Origin: Candidatus Krumholzibacteriia bacterium
GTDB taxonomy: Bacteria; Krumholzibacteriota; Krumholzibacteriia; LZORAL124-64-63
Assembly: GCA_016744705.1 (NCBI GenBank)
Contig: JADGDU010000014.1
Coordinates: 22,820 to 86,819 of the forward strand
Length of the DNA: 64,000 nucleotides
Direction: 5' to 3'
Every line of letters begins with the position of its first letter. The first letter of the stretch is position 1. Positions 25,993 through 50,261 of this stretch are shown piece after piece. A program made the position numbers and the translations under genes. Under the pieces are notes generated by a model. The model was given only the letters and a program-made list of their open reading frames with translations, did not search any database and was not told where the DNA came from.

Positions 25993-27900
25993 ATGTCTTC
26001 CATCACCAAGCCGGTCATAGCAATTTGCCTTCTATTGACAGCCTCTCTGGCTGGCGCCCAGAGCCTTCCCGATGATGAATCAAGCATGTTCACTGGCTCG
26101 GGAAATTGTGCCATGTGCCATTCCAGCGATGGTTCGTCTAACACTGAAAACGGCGTCGACATCTCCATGCCCACCCAATGGCGGAGCACCATGATGGCAA
26201 ATTCTGCCAGGGACCCTCTGTGGCGTGCCAAGGTTTCAGCTGAAATTGACGAATTTCCCCATTTGCAGGAACACATTGAAGCCACTTGCACCCGGTGTCA
26301 TGCCCCCATGGCTCACGAACAAGCTATGCATGACGGCCAAGCCAATTATTCCCTGGCAGAAATGGAGAGCAACCCGCTGGCTCTTGATGGAGTCAGTTGC
26401 ACTCTTTGCCACCAGATAGAGCCGGATAATTTTGGCTTACCCCAGAGTTATTCAGGAAACTTTGAGCTTGATGAAGTGCGTCAGATTTACGGGCCATACA
26501 CCAGTCCCTTAACTGGCCCCATGATGAACAATTCCAATTTCACTCCGGAGTATGCCCAACACCTGGGAGAGTCGGAACTTTGCGCCACCTGCCACACTCT
26601 GTTCACGGAATCAGTGGACGATGATGCCCAACTGCGGGGTGCCTTCCCTGAACAGACTCCGTATTTGGAATGGAAGAACAGCACCTTTGGGCAGAACAAT
26701 GTAGCTTGCCAGGCTTGCCATATGCCCGTGGCCAATACGGCCCAGGATATTGCCACCCGACCTGGTTGGCACAACGTCACTCGTGAACCCTATGCCAAAC
26801 ACGAATTTGTGGGGGCTAATGAGTTCATGTTGAATATTTTGAAAAGCAACATCAGCGAGTTAGGCCTTTCGGCTTCAGAGGCCCAATTCGAAGCCACCTT
26901 GGACCGTACCCGGGATATGCTGGAAAATCAGACTGTGGGTTTGTCGGCCATGCACAATCTGGTGGGCGATACCTTAGCTATTGATTTGAGGGTGGAAAAT
27001 TTCTGTGGCCACAAACTGCCTACGGGTATTCCTTTGCGCCGCATGTGGGTGCATTTGAAAGTTGTGAGTGGTGAAGAAGAACTCGTTTTTGAATCGGGAA
27101 ATTGGGATGAAAACGGAGAAGTAGTCGGCCTTGATGAGGGATACGAGCCCCACCACAACATGATCAATGACCCGGACCAGGTTCAGATTTACGAACCGAT
27201 CATGATGGATGCCAACGGTGACCAGACGCACACTCTTCTGCGAGCTTCGGCTTACCTCAAAGACAATCGTTTGCCCCCCATGGGATTCACTTCCAGTCAC
27301 ACCGCTTACGATAGCACCGCCATTGAAGGGCTGGCCCTTCAGGATCCTGATTATAATATCAGCAACGGTGCCGAGGGCAGTGGTTCGGATATCGTCCACT
27401 ACCGTATTCCTGTCACTTCGCAGGGGCCGTTCAGGGTTGAAGTTCAAGCGTGTTATCAAACTCTTTCGCCCCGGATGTTTGCGGACATCGCTTCTCATGA
27501 TACTCCTGAAGTGCATGTCTTTGCTCCCATGTATGAATCGGCGGACAAGGCCCCTTCCATACTGGGCAATCTGACTCTCACAATCGACACTGTTTCAGGG
27601 GTGGAGCACGGCAGCTTGCCCCTTCCGCTTCGCCTGAACCAGAACGTACCCAATCCCTTTAATCCGGCCACCCTGATTTCCTATGATCTGAGAAGCCAAC
27701 AAGCAGTGCGGTTGGATATTTTTGACATGTCCGGCCAGTTGGTACGGCACCTGGTTTCAGAAACCCAAGCGGCCGGGTCATACAGCACGCTTTGGAATGG
27801 CGCCGATGATCACGGTGGGGCCGTGGCCTCGGGTCTGTACCTTTACCGGCTTAGTGCGGGGGAGCATCAGGAAAGCCGGCGCATGACGTTGGTGCGTTGA
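25993..27900 (+). CDS. Pentaheme c-type cytochrome with a T9SS type-A C-terminal sorting domain
   Basis: Signal peptide. Five CxxCH motifs in the first ~260 aa (CAMCH, CTRCH, CTLCH, CATCH, CQACH). C-terminal CTD NVPNPFNPATLISYDL...IFDMSGQLV...SGLYLYRL...RMTLVR. Confidence 0.8.
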   Translation: MSSITKPVIAICLLLTASLAGAQSLPDDESSMFTGSGNCAMCHSSDGSSNTENGVDISMPTQWRSTMMANSARDPLWRAKVSAEIDEFPHLQEHIEATCTRCHAPMAHEQAMHDGQANYSLAEMESNPLALDGVSCTLCHQIEPDNFGLPQSYSGNFELDEVRQIYGPYTSPLTGPMMNNSNFTPEYAQHLGESELCATCHTLFTESVDDDAQLRGAFPEQTPYLEWKNSTFGQNNVACQACHMPVANTAQDIATRPGWHNVTREPYAKHEFVGANEFMLNILKSNISELGLSASEAQFEATLDRTRDMLENQTVGLSAMHNLVGDTLAIDLRVENFCGHKLPTGIPLRRMWVHLKVVSGEEELVFESGNWDENGEVVGLDEGYEPHHNMINDPDQVQIYEPIMMDANGDQTHTLLRASAYLKDNRLPPMGFTSSHTAYDSTAIEGLALQDPDYNISNGAEGSGSDIVHYRIPVTSQGPFRVEVQACYQTLSPRMFADIASHDTPEVHVFAPMYESADKAPSILGNLTLTIDTVSGVEHGSLPLPLRLNQNVPNPFNPATLISYDLRSQQAVRLDIFDMSGQLVRHLVSETQAAGSYSTLWNGADDHGGAVASGLYLYRLSAGEHQESRRMTLVR

Positions 27901-32202: not shown

Positions 32203-35200
32203 TCAAGATGTGAAAGACTCAGGGCCCAACAATGATGCGAGTACTCTCCGCAAGTCATCCTGGGCAAATGGCTTGTTTAAAATTCCTGAAAAACCAAATT
32301 TCTGAAAATGGGCCATCACCGGGTCATCTGAATAACCACTGGCCACAATCACTTTCACCTTGGGGTTGATTTTCCGCAACTCAGCGAGAGTTTCCAGGCC
32401 ACCCATGGCTCCGGGAATGGTCAGATCCAGAATGACCAGATCAAAAGGTCGGCCTTGTTGTTGGGCTTGAAGGTAAGCGGCATGGGCCGATTCACCATGA
32501 GGCACGCCAGTCCAGTGGTGGCCCAGGTGGTCCAGCATTTGGGACATCAGAAACCGAATTTCGTCTTCATCATCCATAAACAAAATATTGAGGCCAGAGG
32601 TAACCTGGTCCGTTTGATCCAGCGTACTATTGGGGGAGGTCTGACGAGATCCGTCACAGGCCGGCAGAATCAATTGGAAGACACTGCCTTGGCCCAAGGT
32701 CGATTCCACGGTCAAGCGGCCATCATGCTTTTCGGCAATGGAGTGTGCAATGGCCAGACCCAGGCCAGTCCCTTTTTCCCGGGTGGTGAAATAAGGGTCG
32801 AAAATGCGAGCTTGGTCTGATTCCGATATTCCTTTGCCATGGTCCTGGATTGTGATCACTACAAAAGCATGGTCAGATTTTATCCCGGGCCAGGTGTCGC
32901 TGTTCTGGGCAGACACTTCCAACTGGCCCCCCCCACTCATGGCTTGACGGGCATTGATCACCAAATTGCCAATGATCTGGGAAATTTGGACTGCATCAAC
33001 TTCGGCCCAAGACAGGTCTTCAGGGATGTCCATTTGGCATTGCACATTGGATCCGCTGAGATTGAAGGAAACAGAATCCTGGATGATGGGGATCAGGTTT
33101 GTGGATTCCCGCATCGGGCCACCACCCTTGGCAAAAGTCAACAATTGGCGGGTCAGGTTTTGGGCCCTTCTGGAGGCTAGACGAATTTTTTCCAATTGAA
33201 CATTTTCCACTGCCGTGGTTATCAGAGTGCTCTCGGCGAGGCTCAGGTTTCCCATCATAATGGTCAGCAGGTTGTTGAAATCGTGGGCAATGCCACCGGC
33301 CAAAAGGCCCAGTGATTCAAGCTTTTGGCTGCGGTGTTTGTTCTGTTCAGTTTGGAGACGGCTGGTGATGTCACGAAAAGCGAAGACCTGGCCACCGGAA
33401 GGACCGGTGATTGGTACCCCGGATAATTCAATCCATCGCGTCTTATTTTGACCAGAATACAGGGCCAATTGCTGAGATTTCAGCCGAACAGAAGACGGGT
33501 CCTTCAAAAGTTGCTTGTATTGCTTTTTCTGATCGGGGTTGAGCAAGGCCCGAACAGGAAGAATGTCTTCCAGGTAGTCGCCAATTTTAGGGGGCAGAGA
33601 GCCTAAAAATATTCCCTCAGCAGCCTTATTGAAAAGGACAACCTGGTTGTTGCCATCGATTACAACAACACCATCAGAAATACTTTCGAGGGTACTCTTC
33701 AAGCGTTCCGATTCCAGCCTTGCGGTTTCTTCACTCTTGCGTAGGTCTCGTGTTTGAATCCGGACTTCATTTTCGAGGCGTTGCGCATATTGGCGGCCCG
33801 AAAAATAAGCAAAGAGTAGCCATAGCATTAGGGCTATGGCCAATCCAGAGAGGGCCTTGATGAACCAGCGTTCCATCAGGGGGGGGATGATGGTAATCAA
33901 GGGAGTGGTGACGATATTTGATTCCAGGCCCTCAGGTGTGCGGGCGACAACATGCACCTGGAAGCGGCCAGGTGGTACGTTGGTCATAGGCAATACGCCA
34001 GGCCAATGCATAATATATGAGGGCAGATCAATGTCCGATTGGGATGTGATTTCGGCCACAAATTCCAAATGCTCTTCGCTGGAAAAATACGGGGCGTCAA
34101 ACTTAAAAACCAGAGAAGCCAGAGGGCCAGTAATTTGTACCGGATGACGGGGTGGGTACTGTACACCATTGATCATCATGCTGGACAGGCTGAGGACAGG
34201 GGGATTGGTGCTCGGGATGTCTAATTCCGGTCTAAAAATAGAAAGGCCACTGTCAGTGCCAATCCAGATGTTTCCATCCCGGGTTATCATGAAGGCGTCT
34301 CGGTTGATTTCTGATCCGAGCAATCCTTCATTAGCGGTGAGGCGGGTTTGTTGGTTTCCGTCCCAGATGATGGCGCCATTGTCGGTACCAAACCAAAGCT
34401 GCCCCGATTGGTCTTGAACCATTCCGTAAATGGGGCGGCGAATTACTGGATCCGGGGCGGTTGTTCTGACCAAATTGTTGTCCTGAACCCGGAACAACCC
34501 ACTGTTGGTGCAAACCAGGAGCCCTCCTTCAGGGCGTTCGAACACGGTGTAAACATTGTTGCTTCCATCTTGCATCTTGCCGGGCAGGGAAGTGAAGGCC
34601 CCGTCCTTCCAGAGAAACAAACCAAAGCTTCTGGTGGCAATGGCAAAACCACCCGTACTCAGTGGAACGAGGCGACGGATGTTCAGATTATGGGCATTCT
34701 CGAGCCCAGGCAGAGGGACTCGTTCAAACCGGTCACCTATTTGACGGTAAAGGCCATCAAGAGTACCAACAAAGAGGCCATATTCCGGATGTGGCATGAT
34801 GGCATATACGGCGTCGGTCAGTCCGTGCTCCCGGTTGAACCACTGGATGGATTCGTCATTCTGCAAGAGGCCGAGACCTTTATGATTTGCTGCAATCCAC
34901 AAACGGCCCTGGCTGTCTTCGGCAAGATCTGTGACCCGGCTGTAAATAGGGAGATTGTCGTCGAAAGAAATGGTGTGGGGGATGGAGTCCAGAAAAGTCA
35001 ATCCTCCTCGCTGTCCGAGGACCATAGCGCCAGAAGCCCTTTCGATCACTGAGCCCACTTCGCCATTGAGCAATCCATGGTCACTGTTGTAGCAGGCCAG
35101 GCTTCGGCTCATGATTTTGCTGATTCCACGAGTGCTACTAATCCAGATGTTGTTTTCCCGGTCCATCATGACATGGTTGCCACTGTCGGTGGCCAAGCCG

Positions 35201-36096
35201 CTTGTGGTTGTAAAGGTTTCAAAACCCGAGTGGGGATGGAAATGAACGACCTGGGTGGAGTCTGAAAAATAGATCCCTCCACTGGGTCCCATGCAAAGGG
35301 AAAGGCCTTGTTTTGTTTTGTCGAAAAACAAATGAGAAACAGAAAATCGTTCCGCCAGTTTCCGGCCTTGGTATCGAACCAGCCATTGGTCGCTGATGAC
35401 CCACAAGCTTCCACTGGAGTTGTCAGAACAGGCGCCCATGATTTGTCCATCCGGCAGTTCCAGGTCCAACTGGTAGGGCTTGTGGAGAGACTTCAAGTCA
35501 AGGGTGAACAATCCGGTTTTGGTGGATAACAGAAGGTGGGATCCATCCAGGGACAAGGAATGGGGGTGTAAATGAGGTTGGTCAAAGGAGAAGGTACTCC
35601 AAACCTCATTTTGCCATATCTGCAGGGGGCCATTATTGGAGGCGATGATCAAAGTTGTATGGCCTTTTTCATCGACCCAGGTTTTGAGTTCAACATTGGT
35701 GGAAAATCGACTGAAAGTATCAGGTTTGGGTAGTTTTTGCCAATTCCCGTCAACCAGTCGGGAAGCCTTGAAAGGCCAATGGATGTTGATCCACCAGACA
35801 CCCCCGCCATCATCGATGGATACCAAGCCGTCGCCGTTGGGGGCTGCGGGGTTCCTGGACGTGATTGTTTGCCATTTGATTCCATCGAAAACGCTCATGC
35901 CATTTCTAGTGCCAAACCACATCTTTCCCAAGGCATCCTGAGCCGCATTGTTGACCTTGTTGGATGCCAGACCATCTTGTTCGCGGAATGTTTGGATATG
36001 GTACCGCTGAGCCTGGACGGGGGCTGGTAAAATGGCTGCCAGGGTGGAGAGTAGGCAGCAAAGTATGGTTAGATTTTTAAGAGGTCCGAAAGGCAT
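32203..36096 (-). CDS. Hybrid sensor histidine kinase/response regulator with a very large periplasmic propeller-type sensor
   Basis: Signal peptide. About 700 aa of Reg_prop-type blades plus a Y_Y_Y-like region. One TM helix. PAS. HisKA (AHDFNNLL). HATPase_c (GTGLGLAIAHSI). C-terminal REC (DLVILDLTIPG). No DNA-binding output. Confidence 0.9.
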   Translation of the reverse strand: MPFGPLKNLTILCCLLSTLAAILPAPVQAQRYHIQTFREQDGLASNKVNNAAQDALGKMWFGTRNGMSVFDGIKWQTITSRNPAAPNGDGLVSIDDGGGVWWINIHWPFKASRLVDGNWQKLPKPDTFSRFSTNVELKTWVDEKGHTTLIIASNNGPLQIWQNEVWSTFSFDQPHLHPHSLSLDGSHLLLSTKTGLFTLDLKSLHKPYQLDLELPDGQIMGACSDNSSGSLWVISDQWLVRYQGRKLAERFSVSHLFFDKTKQGLSLCMGPSGGIYFSDSTQVVHFHPHSGFETFTTTSGLATDSGNHVMMDRENNIWISSTRGISKIMSRSLACYNSDHGLLNGEVGSVIERASGAMVLGQRGGLTFLDSIPHTISFDDNLPIYSRVTDLAEDSQGRLWIAANHKGLGLLQNDESIQWFNREHGLTDAVYAIMPHPEYGLFVGTLDGLYRQIGDRFERVPLPGLENAHNLNIRRLVPLSTGGFAIATRSFGLFLWKDGAFTSLPGKMQDGSNNVYTVFERPEGGLLVCTNSGLFRVQDNNLVRTTAPDPVIRRPIYGMVQDQSGQLWFGTDNGAIIWDGNQQTRLTANEGLLGSEINRDAFMITRDGNIWIGTDSGLSIFRPELDIPSTNPPVLSLSSMMINGVQYPPRHPVQITGPLASLVFKFDAPYFSSEEHLEFVAEITSQSDIDLPSYIMHWPGVLPMTNVPPGRFQVHVVARTPEGLESNIVTTPLITIIPPLMERWFIKALSGLAIALMLWLLFAYFSGRQYAQRLENEVRIQTRDLRKSEETARLESERLKSTLESISDGVVVIDGNNQVVLFNKAAEGIFLGSLPPKIGDYLEDILPVRALLNPDQKKQYKQLLKDPSSVRLKSQQLALYSGQNKTRWIELSGVPITGPSGGQVFAFRDITSRLQTEQNKHRSQKLESLGLLAGGIAHDFNNLLTIMMGNLSLAESTLITTAVENVQLEKIRLASRRAQNLTRQLLTFAKGGGPMRESTNLIPIIQDSVSFNLSGSNVQCQMDIPEDLSWAEVDAVQISQIIGNLVINARQAMSGGGQLEVSAQNSDTWPGIKSDHAFVVITIQDHGKGISESDQARIFDPYFTTREKGTGLGLAIAHSIAEKHDGRLTVESTLGQGSVFQLILPACDGSRQTSPNSTLDQTDQVTSGLNILFMDDEDEIRFLMSQMLDHLGHHWTGVPHGESAHAAYLQAQQQGRPFDLVILDLTIPGAMGGLETLAELRKINPKVKVIVASGYSDDPVMAHFQKFGFSGILNKPFAQDDLRRVLASLLGPESFTS

Positions 36097-40205: not shown

Positions 40206-41303
40206 TTAGGCTTTGGGAGCCCTCTTTTTAAACCGAGGAGAATTCCCCCACAATCCGTACCCAATTTTCTCGCCAATTCCAGCGATGCGTTTTTCCAGGC
40301 CCATGCGACTCTGCTCTGAGTTTTCGTCGAGACTGGGTTTACCGTCGTACAACTGATACGCTCGCCGGTGCTTGGGGTCCGTCACGTTGGGCATGATGAT
40401 GTTGGCTCCGGCCTGCAGCCCCAACTCCCGGCCCGTATCGCTTAAAGCCTGCAGGGCGGTGGTGGCGGCCATGTTGGCGTCGGGCAGAAGCAGGCGGGCG
40501 CAAGCCAGCATTTTGAGGCCCAATTGAAGTTGAGCGTCTTTGTTGAAGGTGTCCAGGTGGTGGGCTAACGGAGTGTCGCCGTGGGGAATGAAGGGGCCCA
40601 TGCCGATCATATCCACATCCAGTTCTTTGATGTAAAGCAAGTCGTCGGCAAGGTCGGCGTTGGTCTGGTCGGGTAAACCGATCATCACTCCTGTGCCCAC
40701 CTGGTAACCTTCGTTGCGCAAATCATCGAGGCATTGCAGGCGGGGGGCCCAAAGATGGTCTTCAGGATGATACTGGCGGTACAAATCCTGACGACTGGTT
40801 TCAAGCCGCAGCAAGTAGCGGTGGGCACCGGCTTGTCGCCACTGGCGAAGCACCTGGGGGCTTTGTTCACCAAGGGAAAGAGTGACGCCCAATTCACCAT
40901 TGGTGGCTTCGTGCAACTGGTTCAGGGCATCAGTGATATATTGGCTGTGGTTGTCGTTTTGGATCTCGCCCCCTTGCAACACCAATGAGCCATAATGGTT
41001 GTCGTGGGCCCAACGGGCGGCTTGCACAATCTCCTCTATGGAGAGGCGGAACCGGGGAACCTTGGGGTTTGATTTTCGGATGCCGCAGTAAAGGCAATCC
41101 TTTTGGCAGATGTTTGAAATTTCGATCAGGCCACGAAAGTAAACTACTGGCCCGACGTTTTTCTTTTTCACTTCATAGGCGGCGTGAAAAAGGGCTTCGT
41201 ATTCGTTTTCCTCGCTGATGTCCAGAAGGCGGATCAAATCGTCACGCTCGAGAGTCTGGCCCTGGGCAACATGTCCCAAAATGTCTTTGACCTGTTGGGT
41301 CAT
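40206..41303 (-). CDS. hydE: [FeFe]-hydrogenase H-cluster radical-SAM maturase HydE
   Basis: Cx3Cx2C radical-SAM motif CQKDCLYCG. Biotin-synthase-like architecture of about 365 aa. Operonic with hydF and hydG. Confidence 0.85.
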   Translation of the reverse strand: MTQQVKDILGHVAQGQTLERDDLIRLLDISEENEYEALFHAAYEVKKKNVGPVVYFRGLIEISNICQKDCLYCGIRKSNPKVPRFRLSIEEIVQAARWAHDNHYGSLVLQGGEIQNDNHSQYITDALNQLHEATNGELGVTLSLGEQSPQVLRQWRQAGAHRYLLRLETSRQDLYRQYHPEDHLWAPRLQCLDDLRNEGYQVGTGVMIGLPDQTNADLADDLLYIKELDVDMIGMGPFIPHGDTPLAHHLDTFNKDAQLQLGLKMLACARLLLPDANMAATTALQALSDTGRELGLQAGANIIMPNVTDPKHRRAYQLYDGKPSLDENSEQSRMGLEKRIAGIGEKIGYGLWGNSPRFKKRAPKA

Positions 41304-42523
41304 GATACCACCGAGGGCGATTCAAACGGAGCCATGGCCCGAGGCAGAATACCCAAACAAAAGGCAATGGCCAGTCCATAGTTGGTAGCCGGCACACCGG
41401 CTCGTCGGCAATGTCCCAGACGGCTTTGGATTTCCTGACGGTTCATGGTGCAGCCGCCGCAGTGGACCACCAGTTTATAAGGGGAAAGGTCGGTGGCAAA
41501 ATCGTGTCCCTGAACGGTGTCGAAGACCAAGGATCCGCCCACCGCTTCATTCAGCCAACGGGGGAGCTTGACGCGGCCGATGTCATCAGTCTCCACCGGG
41601 TGATGGCTACAGCTTTCGGCCACCAGGACCCGGTCGCCAGGTTGCAGGTTGGCAATGGCGCGAGCGCCGGCTACCTGAGATTCGAAATCGCCACGATGCC
41701 GAGCCATCAAGACCGAAAACCCAGTCATGGGGATGTCCTCGGGGACCATGGCGCTCACCTGAGCAAAAGCCTGGCTGTCGGTCACCACCAGAGCGGGCTT
41801 TTTCCGGAGATTGGCCAAAGCAGATTCCAGCTGAGTTTCTTTGACCACAAGGCAGCAGGAATCACCATCCAACAGATCGCGGATAGCGTTAACCTGGGGC
41901 AGAATGATTCGGCCCACCGGGGCTTCTTTGTCAATGGGAACCACCAAAATGGCTGTTTCTCCGGCGGGTACAAGGTCCCGTACCAGGGGCGGGGTTTTGG
42001 AGCGGCTCTGGGTGGCTGTATCGATAATGGCCAGCCGCAGATCATCAATGCCAGTGCCCCCCGTCACGGACGTGGCCACCCATTTCACTCCCAGCTCATC
42101 AAGCATTTTGGTCATGGCATCTGATGGTAATTCTTTGTCAGCCTGGTTGAGAACCACAATGACCGGGATGCGTCTTTCTTTCATTTCCTCCAGCAATTGC
42201 TCTTCGTGAGAGCCCCAGGCGTTGGTGGTCGTCACCAGCAACACCAACTCGCAACGATCAAGCATGGCCCGGGTTCGGTCCATGCGCAGTTTGCCCAGAT
42301 CACCGGTGTCATCAAGGCCTGCGGTGTCGATCAAAACCACAGGCCCGATGGGCTGCAACTCCATGGGCTTGCTCACCGGATCGGTGGTGGTGCCTGGAGT
42401 ATCGGAAACAATGGCTACATCCTGACGGGTCAGGGCGTTGACAAGGCTGCTTTTACCCACATTGCGCCGGCCATAAAGGCCAATGTGCAGGCGGAACCCG
42501 CGGGTTGCTGTTTGGCGTTTCAT
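41300..42523 (-). CDS. hydF: [FeFe]-hydrogenase H-cluster maturation GTPase HydF
   Basis: N-terminal GTPase (GRRNVGKSSL, DTAG). C-terminal cluster-binding CSHHP...HCGGC motif. Confidence 0.85.
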   Translation of the reverse strand: MKRQTATRGFRLHIGLYGRRNVGKSSLVNALTRQDVAIVSDTPGTTTDPVSKPMELQPIGPVVLIDTAGLDDTGDLGKLRMDRTRAMLDRCELVLLVTTTNAWGSHEEQLLEEMKERRIPVIVVLNQADKELPSDAMTKMLDELGVKWVATSVTGGTGIDDLRLAIIDTATQSRSKTPPLVRDLVPAGETAILVVPIDKEAPVGRIILPQVNAIRDLLDGDSCCLVVKETQLESALANLRKKPALVVTDSQAFAQVSAMVPEDIPMTGFSVLMARHRGDFESQVAGARAIANLQPGDRVLVAESCSHHPVETDDIGRVKLPRWLNEAVGGSLVFDTVQGHDFATDLSPYKLVVHCGGCTMNRQEIQSRLGHCRRAGVPATNYGLAIAFCLGILPRAMAPFESPSVVS

Positions 42524-42532
42524 GCATCGCTC

Positions 42533-43909
42533 CTAGCAGAAAACATCGCGACGGCCGGCACGGATCTTCTCCAGCATGACCTGAGCGCGGCGGCGAGGTT
42601 CGGGGTCCATGGTTTCCAGGGCGTTGGCGATGCTGAGCATACCGGCTTCCTGGGTTTCGGGTTGGGCGTAATCCATCAGATATTCCAGAAAACTGCTCAG
42701 GCCGTTGGGAGCGCAATGGGCTTTGATGTCGCCGGGTTTGGCCAGATCCATGAAGTCGGCTCCGGTGCGCCCGAGACGGTAGCAACCGGTGCAGAATGAT
42801 GGGATGTAACCCAGGCGGGCCACATCGGCCACCACTTCATCGAGAGAACGCACATCACCCAAGCTGAATTGTTCGGCGGTGTGTTTATCGGACGCAGAAT
42901 AGGCACCAGGATTGGTGCGGCTGCCGGCAGAAATTTGAGAGACACCGAGGGCAAAGGTTTCACGCCGAATGTCTGCGGTTTCCCGGGTGGACATGATGAT
43001 ACCTGTGTAGGGGACCATCAGCCGGAGAATGGCTACGATTTTGCGAAAGGCCAAATCAGACACCGGGTTGGGTGGGTTGCTGGCCAAATCGGCTCCGGTT
43101 GCGGGCTCCAGGCGCGGTACGCTGATGGTGTGTGGACCAAAACCGAATTCTTTTTCCAGGTGGCGAATGTGCTGGTGCAGGGCCAGCAGTTCAAATCGCC
43201 AATCAGCCAAGCCGAACAAGACACCAATGCCCACGTCATCAATACCTGCGGAGATGGCCCGATCCATGGCTTGCAGTCGCCAATCATAATCTGTTTTGGC
43301 CCCGCGCAGGTGCACCTTTGAATAAGTTTCACGATGGTAGGTTTCCTGGAAGATTTGGTAGGTGCCGATGTCGTGCTCTTTGAGCCGTTTGAAATCGGCT
43401 TCTTCCAGAGGAGCGACGTTTACGTTCACTCGGCGAATTTCTCCGCTGCCCCGTTTGACGGAGTACACGGTGTCGATGGCGCGTAAAATGTAATCGAAAC
43501 CATCGCGGGGGTAAGCTTCGCCCGCCACCAGAAGAATGCGTTTGTGACCTTCATCAACCAGAGCTGCGGTTTCGGAGGCAATCTCTTCCATGCTCAGGGC
43601 ACGGCGATTGAGGCCTCGGTTGCTGCTACGGAATGCACAGTAAGCGCAGTCATTTTTACAGAGATTGGAAACGTAAAGGGGGGTAAATAAGACCAAACGG
43701 TGGCCATAAATTTCCGCTTTGACATCGCGCGCTGCCCGGAAGAGTTCGCCCAGCAATTCAGGGTCACTAATATTGCAAAGAGCCGCTACGTCGTCGGCCT
43801 CCAGGCCTTCAAGCTTTCGGGCCCTGGCCAGGATTTCAGTAATATCGGATTCGCTCTTCTGTCCACCCCGTTGTAGGGATTTCTCGATGTTTCCTTCGTC
43901 GATTTTCAT
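42533..43909 (-). CDS. hydG: [FeFe]-hydrogenase H-cluster radical-SAM maturase HydG
   Basis: CKNDCAYCAF (Cx3Cx2C). ThiH-like core. C-terminal Cx2Cx22C (CTGC...KAHC). About 458 aa. Confidence 0.85.
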   Translation of the reverse strand: MKIDEGNIEKSLQRGGQKSESDITEILARARKLEGLEADDVAALCNISDPELLGELFRAARDVKAEIYGHRLVLFTPLYVSNLCKNDCAYCAFRSSNRGLNRRALSMEEIASETAALVDEGHKRILLVAGEAYPRDGFDYILRAIDTVYSVKRGSGEIRRVNVNVAPLEEADFKRLKEHDIGTYQIFQETYHRETYSKVHLRGAKTDYDWRLQAMDRAISAGIDDVGIGVLFGLADWRFELLALHQHIRHLEKEFGFGPHTISVPRLEPATGADLASNPPNPVSDLAFRKIVAILRLMVPYTGIIMSTRETADIRRETFALGVSQISAGSRTNPGAYSASDKHTAEQFSLGDVRSLDEVVADVARLGYIPSFCTGCYRLGRTGADFMDLAKPGDIKAHCAPNGLSSFLEYLMDYAQPETQEAGMLSIANALETMDPEPRRRAQVMLEKIRAGRRDVFC

Positions 43910-45075
43910 GAACTCTCTCCGCTGGGAACAGGTTTGTTTGAATGTCCGGTTCGGGACAAGGTGGCTGTGAAGGTTGTGCCCTGGTTTTCTTGGCTGGACA
44001 CGGTGACCCGGCCGCCGTTCAGATGCACCAGGCGCTGCATAATACTCAAACCCAGGCCACTGCCTTCAATGAGCCGGGTTTTGTCATTCTTTATACGTAC
44101 AAATTCGCCAAACAGGCGACCCACTTCTTCTTCGGTCATACCGATGCCGGTATCGCTGACACTGATAGTGACGTATTCCTCGTCGCTGTCCAACTTGATG
44201 AAAACCTGCCCACCATCGCTGTTGTATTTCACTGCGTTGGAAACCAGATTGTTGAGGATGATTTCGAGTTCGGAATAGACACCCTGCATGATAGTGCTGT
44301 TTGTGCATTCCGCTTCCAGGGAAATATTTCGACTTTGTGCTTGAGGTTGAAATGTTTCCATAACTTTTTCTACCAATTGAGCAGGGTCAACCTCAGTCAA
44401 AACCCGTTCTTTTTGGCGAGATTCAATGCGGGTCAAATCCAGCATATCGTAGATGAGTTTGCGCATGCCCTCGAGCCGTACCAGGCTGCGGCCGATGATG
44501 CGAGCGGTGGCCTCGGGGTTGTTGGCGGTGATGCCTTCATCAAGCAAACGAAGGTAGCCCTCCACGGCCCCCAGGGGCGCCTTCAATTCATGAGCCAAAA
44601 TCGAGAGGAACTCAAAACGCACCCGGTGTTTTTCCCCGGCCAGTTTGCGGGCCGTACGCTCCACCATCAAATGGCGGGACGCTTTCACCACCACTTCCTT
44701 CAACTCTTTGGGCGTGAAGGGCTTGGCCAGGAAGTCATAGGCGCCTTTTTTGGTGGCCTTGACGGCCATTTCCAGAGAGGCATAAGCCGTGATCATCACC
44801 ACCATGGTGGTGGATTTCTGGGCCTGCAACTCAGTCAGAATTTCCATACCTGTAACCCGGGGCATGCCATGGTCCAAAAGCACCAGATCAAAGTGATCCT
44901 GGGCCAAAATCTCTCTGGCCTCGAACCCATCTGTAGCCAACCGTATGTTCAAGGTGAAGGTGCCTTGGCCATGAGGTTCCGTGACAGTGAGGCCTTCCAG
45001 GGCCCGGGCCATGCCCGTGCGCATACCGACCTCATCGTCGGCAATTAAAACCTGTAGAACATGGTTGTCAGTCAT
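43906..45075 (-). CDS. REC-domain / histidine-kinase hybrid (receiver at the N-terminus, HisKA plus HATPase_c at the C-terminus), no output domain
   Basis: Start at the second ATG after AGGAGA. REC (LIADDE...LLDHGMP...AKPF). HisKA (LSILAHELKAPL). HATPase_c (GSGLGLSI). It overlaps hydG by 4 nt and the upstream sensor kinase stop by 8 nt. Confidence 0.8.
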   Translation of the reverse strand: MTDNHVLQVLIADDEVGMRTGMARALEGLTVTEPHGQGTFTLNIRLATDGFEAREILAQDHFDLVLLDHGMPRVTGMEILTELQAQKSTTMVVMITAYASLEMAVKATKKGAYDFLAKPFTPKELKEVVVKASRHLMVERTARKLAGEKHRVRFEFLSILAHELKAPLGAVEGYLRLLDEGITANNPEATARIIGRSLVRLEGMRKLIYDMLDLTRIESRQKERVLTEVDPAQLVEKVMETFQPQAQSRNISLEAECTNSTIMQGVYSELEIILNNLVSNAVKYNSDGGQVFIKLDSDEEYVTISVSDTGIGMTEEEVGRLFGEFVRIKNDKTRLIEGSGLGLSIMQRLVHLNGGRVTVSSQENQGTTFTATLSRTGHSNKPVPSGESS

Positions 45076-47095
45076 GACCATTCTCCTGTGCTTCCGGGTG
45101 CACATACTGAGGCAGAACAATGCTGAAAATGGTTCCCGTGGGACCACTCTTTTCATCGGTATTGGACTGCACGTTGATTTGGCCGCGATGCATTTTTACG
45201 ATGCCGTAACTGACGGCCAACCCCAAGCCAGTGCCTTTGCCTTGGCCTTTGGTGGTGAAGAAGGGTTCGAAAATTCGGCTCAGAATTTCTTCGGCTATAC
45301 CGCAGCCGGTATCAGCCACTTCGATCACCAAGGAATCTTCACTGGGGACGGTGACACTGATGCAGGTAGTGCCACCCTCTGGCATGGCGGCCTGGGCATT
45401 GTTCACGAGGTTGATGATAACCTGTTGCATCTGGGCCTGGTCCAGGTCGGCGCTGAGGTTTTCGTCATCCACTTTTAAGCAGATATTTTGGGTTGCCGGT
45501 GTGATGACACCGCGCAGACATTCCCGCAGAAAAGTCCCAATTTTTACCCGCTGCAATTCCGTTTTGTTCTCTCTGGAGAAATCAAGCAAACCGGAGACAA
45601 TGCCTTTGCAACGGTTGGCTTGTTCGGCGATGAGGGACAAATCGATGCCCAGCTTGGATTCGTGTCCGAATTCATCCTGAAGCAAGTGAGTGTAGAGCAG
45701 CACCACGCCCAGGGGGTTGTTCACTTCGTGAGCTATGCCGGCGGCCAACTGGCCCATGCTGGCCAGCCTTTCCGAGTGCATGAGCTGTTCCTGGGTTGTG
45801 GCCAATTCGGCGTTGGACGAATGAAGGTCGCCCACGGTGTTGCGCAGTTCGTCGATGACAAAGGGCAGACACATTTCGCTTTCGGCCATGCCCTTGTAGA
45901 TGGCCACGGCGTGTTGCCGGCAGGTGTCGTAACCGCAGGCGCGGCAATTCAATTCATCAGATGCCGTGATTTTTCCCAGACGGCGCAAGATGGCGTCAAT
46001 TTCGGCGTCATCAGGCTCGCGCAGTTTCAATTGGTCGGGTTCAAAGGACCGGCTCAGGTCCAGGTCATCAAGTTGGTTCATGTATTTGTACCAACTGCCT
46101 TTATTGCCAATGCGCTGGCGGTTGCCCGCATAGCGACTGATACGGGCACGGCGCCGGAAGAGGGGCTCGTCGGTGGTCATGCCCGCGCCCATGATGCAAC
46201 CTTTGCAGCATAGAATATCAAGCAATTCTGCATCCATATCACCAGAAGAAAATTCGCGCAGGGCTTCCGGGAAATCCTGACGGCCATCGGCAGTGACTAC
46301 ACTGCCGGTGGCCAGGTCTTCACTTAAGCCGGCAACCTGGACCATGCCTCGACTGAGGGGAAAAACGGCCCCCAGATTGGCGCGGGGGGCATCAAAATCT
46401 GCGGGTTTCACTTTGTTGGGATCCAGTTTCCTCCGTCGAATCAATTCATCCAGCTCATTGAAGGTGATGACGCAATCAATACGGCCATCTCCACTGGTGA
46501 ATGCAGCTTCGCCTTTTTTGGCCAGGCAAGGTCCGATAAATATAAGTTTGAGATCGGGACCATGCAGGTTACGCAGGGCACGGGCACTGGCGACCATGGG
46601 TGAGACCAGAGGCAACAGAGAAGAGCAAAGCTCAGGATGGTACCGTTGGACAAAAGTGACGATGGCAGGACACGAGGTGGCAATCCAGCGTTTGAGCGGG
46701 CCGTCTTCCACTAATTCGCGGGTGCGCTGGGCCACTAAATCTGCTCCAAAACCCACTTCGTGAAGAATGTGGAAGCCCAATTCTCTCAGCAGGCCGCCCA
46801 ATACTTTTTCATCAAAGTTGGTGAATTCGGCGGCAAAAGATGGGGCAATGGCCGCGGCCACCATGGTGTCGCCTGCTAAAAGGGTTTCAGCCATCTCCAG
46901 GGAATCGGCAGCCACTTTGGCTCCCTGGCTGCAAACCTGAACGCAGTTGCCGCAACCGATGCAGCGCTCGTGCATGACCATGGCCTGGCCATCTTCAATG
47001 CGAATGGCTTTGGCTGGGCATTCGCGTACACAGGTGAAACAGGTCCGGCATCGTTCGCCAATGGTCTGAACCAGAGTCACTTCTGAAGCTTTCAT
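45068..47095 (-). CDS. Sensory [FeFe]-hydrogenase-like H-cluster protein fused to a histidine kinase (2x[4Fe-4S] Fd, H-domain, Cx2Cx4Cx16C, HisKA, HATPase_c)
   Basis: Fd motifs [12 protein letters not shown] and [12 protein letters not shown]-cluster L1 (ATSCPAIV), L2 ([10 protein letters not shown]) and L3 ([12 protein letters not shown]). C384-x2-C-x4-C-x16-C409. H-box AHEVNNPL. N box NLVNNA. G boxes DTGCGI and GTGLGLA. Confidence 0.8.
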
Positions 47096-47748
47096 GCGCG
47101 GGCTTTCTCTTCAGTTTTAGCCGATGCGTAGAAGGCAACTCTCTCCAAAGACATCTGGATATCGTTGTTTTCTACGAAAACATGATTGGGTACCTGCAAA
47201 CGGATGGGAGTGAAGTTAAGGATGCTGCACACACCGGCGGCAACCAAACGTTCCGCTGCGGCTTGGGCTTCTTCAGGGGGCAGAGCCAGGATGGCAATAC
47301 AGACATGGGCTTCCCGCACCTGTTCTTCAAGGTTGGCGGCATCCAAAACCGGAACATCGTTGAGGTGTTTGCCAACCATATGTGGGTTGACTTCAAAAAC
47401 AGCCTTCATGTTCAGGTGGGGTTGGGTGGACTGAAAGTAGTGCAAAAGAGCTTGTCCCAAATGTCCGGCTCCCAACAGAACCACAGAAGTGGCCTGGGCG
47501 GTGCCCAGACAATTGACCACAGCCTGGGCCAATTCGGTGATGGAATAACCATGCTGGGGAGTACCGCTGGTGGGCACATTCATAAGGTCTTGTCGCACTT
47601 GAGATGCAGAAACACCAGCCATGACGGCCAGATCTCGTGAAAAAATCCGCTGGATTCCTTCTACACTCAATTGCTTGAGAACCCGGCGGTAAATGCTCAA
47701 ACGACCCACGGTGCGGGGATTGATCATGTATTTGGAATGTGTAACCAT
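47092..47748 (-). CDS. rex: Redox-sensing transcriptional repressor Rex
   Basis: ATG at 47748 after AGGAG. Winged helix (RLSIYRRVL). Rossmann fold (VVLLGAGHLGQALL). Its stop overlaps the downstream start (ATGA). Confidence 0.85.
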   Translation of the reverse strand: MVTHSKYMINPRTVGRLSIYRRVLKQLSVEGIQRIFSRDLAVMAGVSASQVRQDLMNVPTSGTPQHGYSITELAQAVVNCLGTAQATSVVLLGAGHLGQALLHYFQSTQPHLNMKAVFEVNPHMVGKHLNDVPVLDAANLEEQVREAHVCIAILALPPEEAQAAAERLVAAGVCSILNFTPIRLQVPNHVFVENNDIQMSLERVAFYASAKTEEKARA

Positions 47749-47771
47749 GGTGGACTCCTGTTTACCACTGA

Positions 47772-47788
47772 TGTTAATAAAATAACAA
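47772..47788. promoter_or_regulatory. Candidate Rex operator (TGTTAATAAAATAACAA, one mismatch from the inner 16 positions of the Rex-box consensus TTGTTAA-N4-TTAACAA) 24-40 nt upstream of the rex start
   Basis: Inverted repeat TGTTA-N6-TAACA read in the sequence just upstream of the rex operon. Confidence 0.35.
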
Positions 47789-48149
47789 GCATTCAACGCC
47801 ACAAAGGTAATCATTGAATTTTGAGGGTCAAGAATATTTTGTTATTTTTTTGACAGCCAAGATGCAAAGATTTTCAAGTTGTGTATTCCATTGTCAAATA
47901 GCCAGTTATGCAATTGTTTTGAAGTAATGCTAAAAATTGAAATCCGAGAAGCGTAATAATTTAATTGCACAATGGAAAGATGGTTTGGAGGCCAAATGGC
48001 CAAGGGTCTGGAGTCATGATTTATAGGGATGAATGTGCGGATGAGGGCAAGATTAACGCTAAGGACTCTGGGAAAAACCAAAGAACTGTCGTATTATTAA
48101 CGGGATATTTTTTTTTATTACAGGTCACTTAAAGAAGGGATCCTATTCC

Positions 48150-50261
48150 ATGTCTTCCAGCCTCATGCCAACTCCAAGACTGGATCAGGGCAGCCCTGAA
48201 ACCATGCGCCAAAATATCCGCAAATATTTCACTGAAACCTGGGAAATTTATGAAGAGTTATTTGAGGTTTTGGACTGTGACGAGGCATATTTTGCCAAAG
48301 CGGATCCACTGAGGCATCCCCTTATCTTCTATTTGGGGCATACAGCCACTTTTTTCATCAATAAAATGGTCTTGGCCAAGGTCATCAGTGAGCGGGTCAA
48401 CCCTCTGTTAGAATCAATCTTTGCCGTGGGCGTGGATGAAATGAGCTGGGATGATCTCAGCGATAAGAACTACGAGTGGCCAACCGTAGCCGAAGCCTGG
48501 GAATACCGAAAACAAGCCAGAGCGGTGGTGGAACAAGCCATTGACGAGATTCCTTTGAATATGCCCATCCAATGGAATGACCCCTTTTGGGTGATCATTA
48601 TGGGTATTGAGCATGAACGCATCCATTTGGAGACCAGTTCGGTTCTGATGCGCCAATTGCCCTTGGAAATGGTCCGCTCGGTGGAGAGATTTCCCTTGTG
48701 CGAAAACTCAGGGGATGCTCCCGCCAATGAAATGCTGGTTGTGGAGGAGGGCGTGGTTGTCCAGGGGCTGCCAGATAACCACTCGTTTTATGGGTGGGAT
48801 AATGAATATGGGCATTTGAAATCAGAGGTTTCTGCATTCAAGGCTACTCGCTATCTGGTCAGTAATGATGAATTTGAGGGCTTTGTGAAGGCCGGCGGAT
48901 ACCAAACGGAAAAATATTGGACGGAAGAGGGGTGGGCCTGGAAAATTTACAGTAAGGCAGAATTTCCCACCTTTTGGGTCAAAACCGGCGAAAAATCCTA
49001 TAAATTGCGTTGTTTGGCAGAAGAAATCGATATGCCTAAGGATTGGCCTGCCGAGGTCAACTATCTGGAAGCCAAGGCTTTCTGTAGTTGGAAAGCAGAA
49101 ACGACTGGCCAACCGGTGCGTTTACCGACGGAAGCAGAATGGTACCGCATCCTGGAATCGTCAACTCTGGATGGGAAGGAGCATTGGACAGGCCACAAGG
49201 CCAACATCAATTTGGCTCAAGGAGCTTCATCCTGCCCAGTGAACGAAAACAAGCAGGGCGATTTTTTCGACGTGGTGGGCAATGTCTGGCAATGGACTGA
49301 AACACCGATCAGCGGATTCCCCGGCTTCAAGGTTCACCCTCTGTATGATGACTTTTCCACTCCCACTTTTGATACCAGGCATAACATTCTCAAGGGTGGG
49401 TCCTGGATCAGCGCAGGCAATGAAGCCAATCCTTTTTCCCGTTACGCCTTCAGAAGGCATTTTTTCCAGCATGCGGGATTTCGTTATATCGAATCGGAGG
49501 CAGAAGTGACCATCAGCGATGACATCTATGAAACTGACGAATTAGTCGGGCAGTATTGTGAGTTCCATTTCGGCCAGGAATATTACGGAGTCCCTAATTT
49601 CCCCAAAGCAACAGCAGAAATTTGTGGGGAATTGATGAAGGGCAGAAGCTTCAAGCGGGCTTTGGATCTGGGCTGCGCCACCGGTAGAAGCACCTTTGAG
49701 TTGGCTCGGTTCTTTGACCATGTCACGGGCATCGATTTCTCCGCCCGCTTTATCCGCGTGGGGCATGACATGCAGAATAAAGGGCGTATCAAGTATGCCA
49801 TCCCCAGTGAAGGCCAACTGGTTTCCTATCATGAAAAAAACCTGGAGGAATTTGGCCTGGTGGGCACCGAAAATAAGGTGGAATTCTGGCAAGGCGATGC
49901 TCACAATTTGAAGCCGCAGTTTGATAATTACGACTTGGTTCTGGCCTGTAATTTGGTGGACCGGCTTTATAGCCCTGCCAAATTTCTGGAGCACATCGCG
50001 GGCCGCATCAACAAGGGTGGCCTGTTGGTTCTGATGTCCCCTTACACTTGGTTGGAAGAATTCACTCCCCTGGAAAACTGGCTGGGCGGGCGAAAAGTTG
50101 ATGGTGAAAACCGTACCACCCTTGATGGTTTTCACAGAGAACTGGAACCAGAATTTCGCTTATTGGGCGAGCCTCGGGATGTGCCCTTTGTCATCCGTGA
50201 AACCGCCCGAAAATTCCAGCACACCCTCAGTCAAATGACGGTATGGGAGAAACTGAAGTGA
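48150..50261 (+). CDS. ovoA: 5-histidylcysteine sulfoxide synthase OvoA (ovothiol biosynthesis): DinB-like, FGE-sulfatase and methyltransferase domains
   Basis: 703 aa. HxxxHxE iron motif (HERIHLE). FGE-sulfatase-like middle domain. C-terminal SAM methyltransferase motif I LDLGCATGRS. Confidence 0.85.
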   Translation: MSSSLMPTPRLDQGSPETMRQNIRKYFTETWEIYEELFEVLDCDEAYFAKADPLRHPLIFYLGHTATFFINKMVLAKVISERVNPLLESIFAVGVDEMSWDDLSDKNYEWPTVAEAWEYRKQARAVVEQAIDEIPLNMPIQWNDPFWVIIMGIEHERIHLETSSVLMRQLPLEMVRSVERFPLCENSGDAPANEMLVVEEGVVVQGLPDNHSFYGWDNEYGHLKSEVSAFKATRYLVSNDEFEGFVKAGGYQTEKYWTEEGWAWKIYSKAEFPTFWVKTGEKSYKLRCLAEEIDMPKDWPAEVNYLEAKAFCSWKAETTGQPVRLPTEAEWYRILESSTLDGKEHWTGHKANINLAQGASSCPVNENKQGDFFDVVGNVWQWTETPISGFPGFKVHPLYDDFSTPTFDTRHNILKGGSWISAGNEANPFSRYAFRRHFFQHAGFRYIESEAEVTISDDIYETDELVGQYCEFHFGQEYYGVPNFPKATAEICGELMKGRSFKRALDLGCATGRSTFELARFFDHVTGIDFSARFIRVGHDMQNKGRIKYAIPSEGQLVSYHEKNLEEFGLVGTENKVEFWQGDAHNLKPQFDNYDLVLACNLVDRLYSPAKFLEHIAGRINKGGLLVLMSPYTWLEEFTPLENWLGGRKVDGENRTTLDGFHRELEPEFRLLGEPRDVPFVIRETARKFQHTLSQMTVWEKLK

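Follow-up and report, generated by a model that had tools for sequence, protein, structure and literature searches.

A predicted H-cluster sensor kinase encoded with [FeFe] hydrogenase maturases behind rex in a Krumholzibacteriia genome

Kinase-fused group C proteins and the six-gene locus

The [FeFe] hydrogenases of groups C and D are referred to as "sensory", and their sensing of H2 and their partners are the question addressed here with a six-gene locus of a Candidatus Krumholzibacteriia bacterium (GenBank assembly GCA_016744705.1, contig JADGDU010000014.1), which is located on the minus strand at positions 40206-47748 of a 64-kb stretch of DNA (64,000 nucleotides [nt]; hereafter the window). 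In the literature, the PAS-type HydS still serves as the model for these proteins (PMC13104023, PMC8924675, PMC8163306), and its interaction partners were described in a 2026 study as remaining to be identified (PMC13104023). Group C as classified in HydDB comprises putative histidine-kinase-linked, chemotactic and phosphatase-linked subtypes (PMC5037454), and H2 or redox sensing is the standard reading, still a putative one, of such proteins (PMC5037454, PMC11406978).

The kinase-linked kind appears in a 2024 study of Hydrogenedentota (PMC11406978) as a group C protein with a histidine kinase domain ("BfuT") encoded downstream of bfuA, and likewise in Caldithrix abyssi; proteins with a kinase domain of the type found in the window are given there as C3 and HATPase-bearing ones as C1, and the description is bioinformatic only. 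The H-cluster-type kinase of the window (kinase 1 or HK1) fits, by its sequence, this known kind. It has in common with the BfuT proteins (sub-type V clusters; C. abyssi WP_006928132.1; HydDB C1/C3) the fusion of an H-domain to a histidine kinase and the proposed role of H2 sensor, whereas the organisation of its operon differs. In BfuT systems the kinase gene lies directly downstream of hydA, as it does in relatives of HK1, one of which (locus L017) is a contig of that study's example metagenome-assembled genome (MAG). In contrast, the window has neither an adjoining hydABC nor a gene for a single receiver, its rex abuts the kinase gene, and its maturase genes occur in the order G-F-E within the operon. 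The searched main text of PMC11406978 does not mention a REC-kinase, maturases (HydE), a response regulator or Rex, and no description of the organisation seen in the window was found in the literature searched.

It is considered probable that the locus constitutes a reduced, Rex-led sensor-relay-maturase operon whose maturases serve both the sensor and a catalytic hydrogenase encoded elsewhere. Its six open reading frames (ORFs) fill positions 40206-47748 with no space between them and are listed below in the order of transcription, with protein lengths in amino acids (aa).

47092..47748, minus strand: rex, redox-sensing NADH/NAD+ repressor, 218 aa (NF003995, Pfam)
45068..47095, minus strand: HK1 (kinase 1), predicted H-cluster sensor histidine kinase, 675 aa (Pfam, alignment, AlphaFold2 model, Foldseek)
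43906..45075, minus strand: HK2 (kinase 2), receiver-histidine kinase hybrid with REC-HisKA-HATPase_c domains, 389 aa (Pfam)
42533..43909, minus strand: hydG, radical SAM tyrosine lyase that yields the Fe(CO)2CN synthon (TIGR03955)
41300..42523, minus strand: hydF, GTPase scaffold for the [2Fe] subcluster (TIGR03918)
40206..41303, minus strand: hydE, radical SAM maturase (TIGR03956)

A preliminary description of this DNA, made from the letters and an ORF list alone, had given the same six head-to-tail genes, and its coordinates, gene order, domains and junctions all agree with the Pfam and NCBIfam matches and with the ORF reading. On the coding strand, rex and HK1 overlap by ATGA (GCGCATGAAAGC), HK1 and HK2 by the 8 nt ATGACTGA (within GGTCATGACTGACAAC), and HK2 and hydG again by ATGA (GTTCATGAAAATC); a gap of 9 nt separates hydG from hydF (TGCTAGGAGCGATGCATGAAA, read as TAG GAGCGATGC ATG), and hydF and hydE overlap by ATGA (ATCATGACCC). 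The gene junctions of the locus are translationally coupled.

The maturases were assigned with equivalog models, HydG scoring 492 bits with TIGR03955 (cutoff 312), HydF 530 bits with TIGR03918 (cutoff 326) and HydE 334 bits with TIGR03956 (cutoff 255). Their motifs are complete, with CX3CX2C at 84-91 and CX2CX22C at 373-399 in HydG, a P-loop at 18-25 and CxH...HCxxC at 305-358 in HydF, and CX3CX2C at 66-73 in HydE. When the genes were compared with those of three related loci, dN/dS ranged from 0.05 to 0.13 in 14 of 18 gene-by-locus comparisons, that is in all those with an estimable dS, a range that indicates purifying selection. Because the catalytic motifs of the maturases are intact and dN/dS is low, all six genes look functional. 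A consensus scan was uninformative with regard to transcription signals (7 promoter-like sites for 5.4 expected and 15 terminator-like sites for 10.3 expected) and revealed no convincing terminator within the operon or just 3' of it.

As had been noticed from the letters, HK1 is the sole H-cluster-type protein of the window, which has no HydA and no NuoE- or NuoF-like partner. Outside HK1, no Fe_hyd_lg_C, NiFe hydrogenase, Complex1_51K or 2Fe-2S_thioredx domain was detected by Pfam in 56 of the 61 ORFs delivered by a greedy ORF caller (the remaining five, of 79-116 aa, had no Pfam scan), and tblastn with HydA, HydB and HydC of a related locus as queries returned nothing else in the 64 kb at E <= 1e-6.

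The predicted sensor kinase and the receiver-kinase

HK1 matches the Pfam domains Fer4, Fe_hyd_lg_C (PF02906; 3e-39, 135.6 bits for a cutoff of 22.1), an FeS domain (PF04060; 3.7e-9), HisKA and HATPase_c, the last two over their cutoffs. Its gene is divided as follows.

46910-47068, minus strand: 2x[4Fe-4S] ferredoxin domain (Pfam)
46076-46873, minus strand: H-domain (Pfam)
45863-45964, minus strand: C-terminal Cx2Cx4Cx16C cluster (motif)
45572-45868, minus strand: signalling helix and DHp with H456
45104-45454, minus strand: ATPase domain (Pfam)

The presence of an H-cluster-type domain in the kinase, already proposed in the preliminary description, is borne out by its four conserved cluster cysteines. 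Sequence matches in PDB include HydA of T. maritima (1.8e-24), and in an alignment with solved hydrogenases C142, C190, C297 and C300 of HK1 correspond to C300, C355, C499 and C503 of CpI. L3 of HK1 has one residue less (CKGC versus CxxGC), S141 (in ATSCP) occupies the proton-relay position held by C299 in CpI (TSCCP), and G188 and L295 align with CpI M353 and M497, respectively. With few exceptions, the top HK1 homologues have S, T, A or N at the relay position, and none has C; putative sensory enzymes have been described as lacking the proton-relay Cys (PMC8924675).

In an alignment of 76 homologues (53-85% identity), the four H-cluster ligand Cys and the Lys/Glu of L2 are invariant, as are C384, C387, C392 and C409 of the C-terminal cluster, which show the exact 2/4/16 spacing. 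Seven of the eight Cys of the N-terminal 2x[4Fe-4S] domain are also invariant, the eighth (C16) being kept in at least 90% of the sequences. The kinase boxes are invariant throughout these homologues (H456 in AHEVNNPL, N562/N566, D595xGxG, F609 and G621-L626). In the AlphaFold2 model of HK1 (mean pLDDT 84.9), a single unbroken helix (410-476) begins directly after the last cluster ligand, C409, and runs through H456. With this model as a query, the top 44 PDB matches of Foldseek are all [FeFe] hydrogenases, aligned over ca. 370-470 columns with a TM score of up to 0.68 (normalised to the target). The alignment of ligands and relay position, the invariant kinase boxes and the continuous helix of the model together indicate a direct fusion, in HK1, of a sensory-type H-domain to a competent histidine kinase; its loading with the [2Fe] subcluster and its reactivity towards H2 are putative. 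No PAS family was detected in HK1 by Pfam at E <= 0.001, and a hidden PAS domain in the linker was ruled out since the span from C409 to H456 counts only 46 residues, all of them helical in the model. A degenerate, Nar1-like relic was ruled out for the H-domain as well, because the ligands are invariant, the maturases co-located and dN/dS low.

Among the HydS proteins, TmHydS of Thermotoga maritima (group C, M2f) resembles HK1 in its N-terminal 2x[4Fe-4S] domain, its H-domain without relay Cys, the replacement of M353 by Gly and its C-terminal four-Cys [4Fe-4S] cluster. It ends, however, in a PAS domain and has no kinase, whereas the last ligand of HK1 runs straight into the DHp helix, and the position of M497 is occupied by Ser in TmHydS and by Leu in HK1. 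TamHydS of Thermoanaerobacter mathranii (group D, M2e) has in common with HK1 the lack of a PAS domain, the C-terminal [4Fe-4S] cluster and Leu in place of M497, and its gene neighbours those of a bifurcating group A enzyme and of a kinase-like ATPase. Unlike in HK1, this kinase-like protein is the product of a separate gene, and M353 is replaced by Ser instead of Gly. The M353 and M497 positions are both substituted in TmHydS and in TamHydS (Land 2020, PMC8163306).

The anatomy of HK1 could also be that of a protein which is not an H2 sensor and which reports either the redox state of the ferredoxin pool or damage to the cluster by oxidation or CO, the H-domain being no more than a redox-active module in equilibrium with the N-terminal 2x[4Fe-4S] domain. 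Such a function is consistent with the strongly conserved Cys of that ferredoxin-like domain, with the lack of the proton-relay Cys, for which turnover should be slow, and with a literature in which the sensory role of groups C and D is only putative (PMC8924675, PMC13104023); furthermore, H-cluster motifs were hardly found in group C1 in the Hydrogenedentota study, which doubted that these proteins sense H2 (PMC11406978). It is nonetheless rather unlikely, as an H-cluster would be needless in a plain redox sensor, whereas its four ligands and the L2 Lys/Glu are invariant in the 76 homologues and the kinase is co-located with hydG, hydF and hydE, whose sole known product is the [2Fe] subcluster. 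This explanation further overlaps with the H2-sensing one, in that a ferredoxin-poised H-cluster would report the H2/ferredoxin couple.

The preliminary description had likened the locus to the H2-sensing Hup systems of [NiFe] enzymes. The analogy in H2 or redox sensing stands, being the standard reading of group C, and by that analogy with HupUV/HoxJ a sensing role of HK1 is reasonable; the likeness is functional only. In [NiFe] group 2b systems (HupUV/HoxBC, HoxJ and HoxA) the logic is the same, with a slow hydrogenase-type sensor and a kinase controlling hydrogen metabolism (PMC5037454), but the metal centre and the fold are different, and the sensor and the kinase are separate proteins joined via a PAS-like region of HoxJ. 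Moreover, HoxA is a linked NtrC-type DNA-binding regulator, of which the window has no linked counterpart, and no NiFe hydrogenase, PAS-kinase partner or sigma-54 activator was detected in the locus by Pfam.

HK2, encoded next to HK1, matches Response_reg (PF00072, 2.3e-25), HisKA and HATPase_c, the latter two over their cutoffs. Its receiver, as read from the sequence, is complete (DD 13-14, D68, T96 and K118) and so is its kinase core, with H162 in SILAHELKAPL and the N, G1 and G2 boxes. A gene of this type follows HK1 in 45 of the 49 loci with enough downstream sequence. The same domain order is found in Leptospira LvrB (REC-HisKA-HATPase), the second member of a kinase cascade. The NCBIfam model of LvrB and the LvrB structure 8vc9 match the kinase core of HK1. 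HK2 as an LvrB orthologue was ruled out, its scores being far below the family cutoff, and the resemblance is an architectural analogy only.

Related clusters and a probable catalytic hydrogenase

In a scan of one genome per species, the HK1 family was found in at least 533 species genomes, which include Planctomycetota, Hydrogenedentota, Krumholzibacteriia, Fermentibacteria and Marinimicrobia as well as Myxococcota, Lentisphaerae, Calditrichota, Acidobacteriota, Caldisericia and others. The best 120 database matches to HK1 all have the same architecture; the closest full-length one displays 85% identity, and one fragment of 374 aa is 100% identical. For 80 related loci (designated by L numbers), genes were annotated by tblastn with reference proteins and neighbour types were confirmed by Pfam, greedy longest-ORF calls being left aside because antisense ORFs won in GC-rich loci.

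The typical cluster begins with rex - hydC (NuoE-like) - hydB (NuoF-like) - hydA (group A, with a small-subunit domain) - sensor kinase and continues with single-domain receiver - REC-kinase - (TM1266-like regulator) - hydE - hydG - (aspartase-like lyase) - hydF. HydA is encoded immediately upstream of the sensor kinase in 61 of the 76 loci with enough upstream sequence, a contiguous rex-hydC-hydB-hydA-(REC)-kinase array occurs in 39 of the 80, and HydA, the sensor and all three maturases lie within 10 kb either side in 18 loci. Judged from these counts, the locus of the window is a reduced form, by descent or recombination, of this widespread hydrogenase super-cluster, without hydCBA and the single REC and with rex abutting HK1. 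The TM1266-like protein (PF21699, "iron-only hydrogenase system regulator, putative") is found between the REC-kinase and hydE in L020 (13768-14046), L055 and L072, and the aspartase-like lyase between hydG and hydF in many canonical clusters; the window has neither.

The tight adjacency to hydA in most loci would also suit a kinase that belongs physically to the hydrogenase complex as a regulatory subunit and acts post-translationally, not via gene expression. The protein is indeed named the T subunit of BfuABC clusters in PMC11406978, and no DNA-binding regulator occurs within the clusters. In the clade of the window, however, the sensor module stands beside two different kinds of hydrogenase operon, or beside none, and an obligate structural partnership is therefore unlikely. 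As the conserved phospho-His, the ATP-binding boxes and the downstream receiver-kinase also point to a phosphorelay, this role of HK1 is regarded as very unlikely.

The arrangements in that clade are as follows. The reduced one (rex and HK1 abutting, no single receiver, order G-F-E) is also found in L001/L002, L003, L089 and L090, in which HK1 is 74-85% identical to that of the window and the upstream flanks have an OvoA-like gene and an M28 peptidase in common. In L084/L085, kinase-kinase-hydGFE lies directly downstream of, and co-directional with, an operon encoding an 88-aa protein, a 661-aa partner with NuoF-C-terminal, Fer4_20 and GltD-like domains and a 596-aa group-A-type HydA, while in L083 and L092 the sensor module is located divergently beside this 88-661-HydA operon. 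The kinase-kinase-hydGFE block has no hydrogenase nearby in L086 and L004, and a full canonical cluster is present in the nearest outgroup, L005 (a Krumholzibacteriia MAG). A rough neighbour-joining tree intermixes the arrangements within the clade and yields no order of events. Outside it, rex directly precedes the sensor kinase with no hydCBA in between in L034 (Brocadiia MAG) and L019 (Lentisphaerae MAG); these belong to unrelated phyla, and the sensor seems to have been uncoupled from the catalytic genes more than once. Further downstream, the window encodes a 1297-aa Reg_prop-PAS-HisKA-HATPase-REC hybrid kinase (32203-36096, minus strand), ca. 4 kb beyond hydE and after Mla-like ABC genes and a TPR protein; its counterpart directly follows hydE in L003 and L090 and is absent from that position in L001.

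Both kinds of operon occur in the MAG GCA_053985975.1, with a window-type rex-kinase-kinase-hydGFE locus on contig JBMXJK010000126.1 and the [88]-[661]-HydA operon on contig JBMXJK010000056.1. The flanks of the latter (S26 peptidase, saccharopine dehydrogenase, fumarase and Wzz) correspond, with protein identities of 62-90%, to the neighbourhood of the sensor module in L083. Proteins of these contigs are 57-90% identical to those of L083, and since the flanks and the sensor genes fall in the same range of identity, an origin of the two contigs from one genome is supported. In the part covered of a 1.24-Mb contig of another relative, which carries P0243, the HydA operon stands alone. For GCA_029940435.1 and GCA_053940925.1, which hold the two window-type loci closest to the window, no HydA was linked to the assembly; P0124 and P0148 are from bulk metagenome assemblies. 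From these relatives, the remaining hydrogenase would most probably be a HydA of group-A type that has a GltD-like partner and whose genes stand at another locus with a Rex-like box ahead.

The HydA of this clade (L087:10001-11791; also L083, L084, L088, L092 and L094) displays the L1 motif TSCSP instead of TSCCP, with a Ser where a Cys of CpI ligates the [4Fe-4S]H cubane and with the proton-relay Cys kept; its L2 (MPCTAK) and L3 (EFMGCPGGCMGG) motifs are canonical. TSCSP occurs in 86 of the 120 closest database homologues of the clade HydA, and the only mention of it found in the literature is a remark on Melainabacteria hydrogenases (PMC3787301).

These data bear directly on the claim of the preliminary description that the maturases are dedicated to the signalling protein. 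According to that model there is no catalytic [FeFe] hydrogenase, and the maturases act only on the H-cluster of the kinase, a self-contained listener to environmental H2; HK1 would be the only H-cluster protein, the trimeric hydrogenase having been lost and a Rex-controlled sensor with private maturation kept. The window indeed has no hydrogenase besides HK1, purifying selection maintains the hydrogenase-free arrangement in five or more diverged loci (the window, L001, L003, L089 and L090), and rex-kinase loci without hydCBA seem to have arisen independently in L034 and L019. The claim is not supported, however, in view of the HydA genes found next to the sensor in the family at large and in other clade members, the HydA operon on a second contig of a sister MAG with the same locus, and the Rex-like boxes before the unlinked operon, which suggest one regulon (see below). 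The hydA just outside the neighbourhood that the description itself had envisaged has, in spirit, an equivalent in one sister genome, GCA_053985975.1. In many bacteria hydE, hydF and hydG are unlinked to hydA, and absence within 64 kb therefore says little. Private maturation for a lone sensor is consequently judged quite improbable and a hydrogenase-free sensing system probably wrong; given the HydA operons of the clade and the second contig of the sister MAG, the maturases probably also serve a catalytic enzyme whose gene lies elsewhere. If private maturation were true, HK1 would be a pure H2 or H2/ferredoxin sensor in a bacterium without [FeFe]-based H2 production or consumption. In a weaker form, kinase-kinase-hydGFE would be a portable sensor-plus-maturation cassette docking onto different catalytic hydrogenase operons.

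Predicted Rex control, proposed mechanism and significance

Rex occupies the first position, ahead of HK1, as the preliminary description had it, and scores 202 bits with NF003995 (cutoff 126); it matches PF06971 (Put_DNA-bind_N) and PF02629 (CoA_binding), carries a GAGHLG Rossmann motif, and its start codon (ATG at 47748) has AGGAG six nt upstream. An alignment of the upstream regions of five window-type loci (the window, L001, L003, L089 and L090), otherwise diverged, contains the following candidate elements.

47839..47856, minus strand: distal Rex-like operator CTGTCAAAAAAATAACAA, just upstream of the -35-like element, with 3 mismatches to TTGTKAANNNNTTMACAA
47825..47832, minus strand: -35-like element CTTGACCC, in which CTTGACC is invariant in the five loci
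47802..47809, minus strand: -10 region candidate TACCTTTG, TAnnTTTG-like, with TA..TT conserved in the five-way alignment
47771..47788, minus strand: proximal Rex-like operator TTGTTATTTTATTAACAT, between the promoter and the ribosome-binding site of rex

The proximal box is the only match to TTGTKAANNNNTTMACAA at <=2 mismatches in the 64 kb (shuffles give 0.67), and its TGTTAT....TAACA is invariant in the five loci. The same is true of the core TGTCAAA....TAACA of the distal box, and the sequence further upstream is not conserved. The conserved CTTGACC and TAnnTTTG-like elements differ from the TTGACA/TATAAT-type site of the consensus scan, whose best promoter-like site (47897-47870) was set aside as it falls in a non-conserved stretch. 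The TAnnTTTG-like sequence may serve as a promoter element, and its form is one we take to be reminiscent of Bacteroidota-type promoters. Several proteins of the window have tails for sorting by the type IX secretion system (T9SS; Por_Secre_tail). Divergent from rex, with a common intergenic region, stands an OvoA-like gene (48150-50261, plus strand) that encodes DinB_2, FGE-sulfatase and methyltransferase domains, and an M28 peptidase comes after it; L001, L089 and L090 have the same synteny. It is odd to find an O2-dependent thiol-histidine synthase paired with a hydrogenase regulator of anaerobe type.

The Rex box has been given as TTGTGAAW4TTCACAA (PMC2883068), an inverted repeat with which the boxes of the window agree in half-site spacing; their half sites are TGTTA/TAACA in place of TGTGA/TCACA. 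In Caldicellulosiruptor bescii, experiments have shown that Rex controls hydrogenase genes and hydG (PMC6391272). An NADH-responsive repressor of hydrogenase and maturase genes is likewise proposed here, and in the window rex is itself the first gene of the sensor-maturase operon. Hydrogenase operons that are unlinked or adjacent to the sensor module, in L087, L088, L084/L085 and L083, also have Rex-like boxes ca. 60-80 nt upstream of their 88-aa gene, where they stand behind a conserved CTTGAT or CTTGAC. Because such boxes precede both operons, the evidence, at footprint level, suggests a single Rex regulon spanning the sensor-maturase and HydA operons.

If the locus is the reduced operon with shared maturases that is favoured here, Rex would bind the two boxes flanking the promoter at low NADH/NAD+ and be freed when NADH builds up, and HydG, HydF and HydE would mature both the sensor and the unlinked hydrogenase. 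HK1 is taken to be a cytoplasmic kinase with an input H-domain of non-catalytic type, and its H-cluster would react slowly with H2, since the proton-relay Cys is lacking and M353 and M497 (CpI numbering) are replaced by G and L. The state of the H-domain and of the C-terminal [4Fe-4S] cluster would then be transmitted by the helix from C409 to H456 to the DHp domain and set autophosphorylation, and the phosphate would pass to D68 of HK2 and on to an unlinked output regulator, which presumably tunes hydrogenase and fermentation genes.

Several points weigh against this scheme. A catalytic hydrogenase in the window's own genome is presumed from relatives, the two contigs of GCA_053985975.1 are joined through metagenomic binning, and the TSCSP motif makes the catalytic status of the partner HydA not certain. 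Binding of Rex at the two boxes is a prediction, and no DNA-binding response regulator is linked to the locus. H-cluster binding and a response to H2 are putative throughout the kinase-fused family. Finally, the C-terminal [4Fe-4S] cluster of TamHydS is not reduced by H2 (PMC13104023); signalling by redox change may therefore be the wrong model, and the signal may be conformational.

Two further observations concern other genes of the window. A 635-aa protein (25993-27900, plus strand) combines multihaem domains of MtrC/MtrF-like and cytochrome c7 type with a C-terminus of the FlgD_ig/T9SS type, and is a possible extracellular electron-transfer cytochrome. A 360-aa protein (62110-63192, plus strand) has two NosL domains, with no other nos genes seen in the scanned part of the window.

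The locus offers a clean system in which to test H2 sensing by [FeFe] proteins and is not a stand-alone new system; none of its features is unique to the window. As the output is fused to the sensor and the last ligand lies 47 residues before the phospho-His, H2-dependent autophosphorylation becomes a one-protein assay, and the first phospho-acceptor, the predicted cognate HK2, is encoded by the next gene. The clade of the window shows a sensor-relay-maturase block that is separable from the catalytic genes and can be combined with different hydrogenase types. This may be of use in reconstructing the regulation of hydrogen metabolism in uncultured anaerobes of the FCB (Fibrobacteres-Chlorobi-Bacteroidetes) and PVC (Planctomycetes-Verrucomicrobia-Chlamydiae) groups, and for H2 biosensors.

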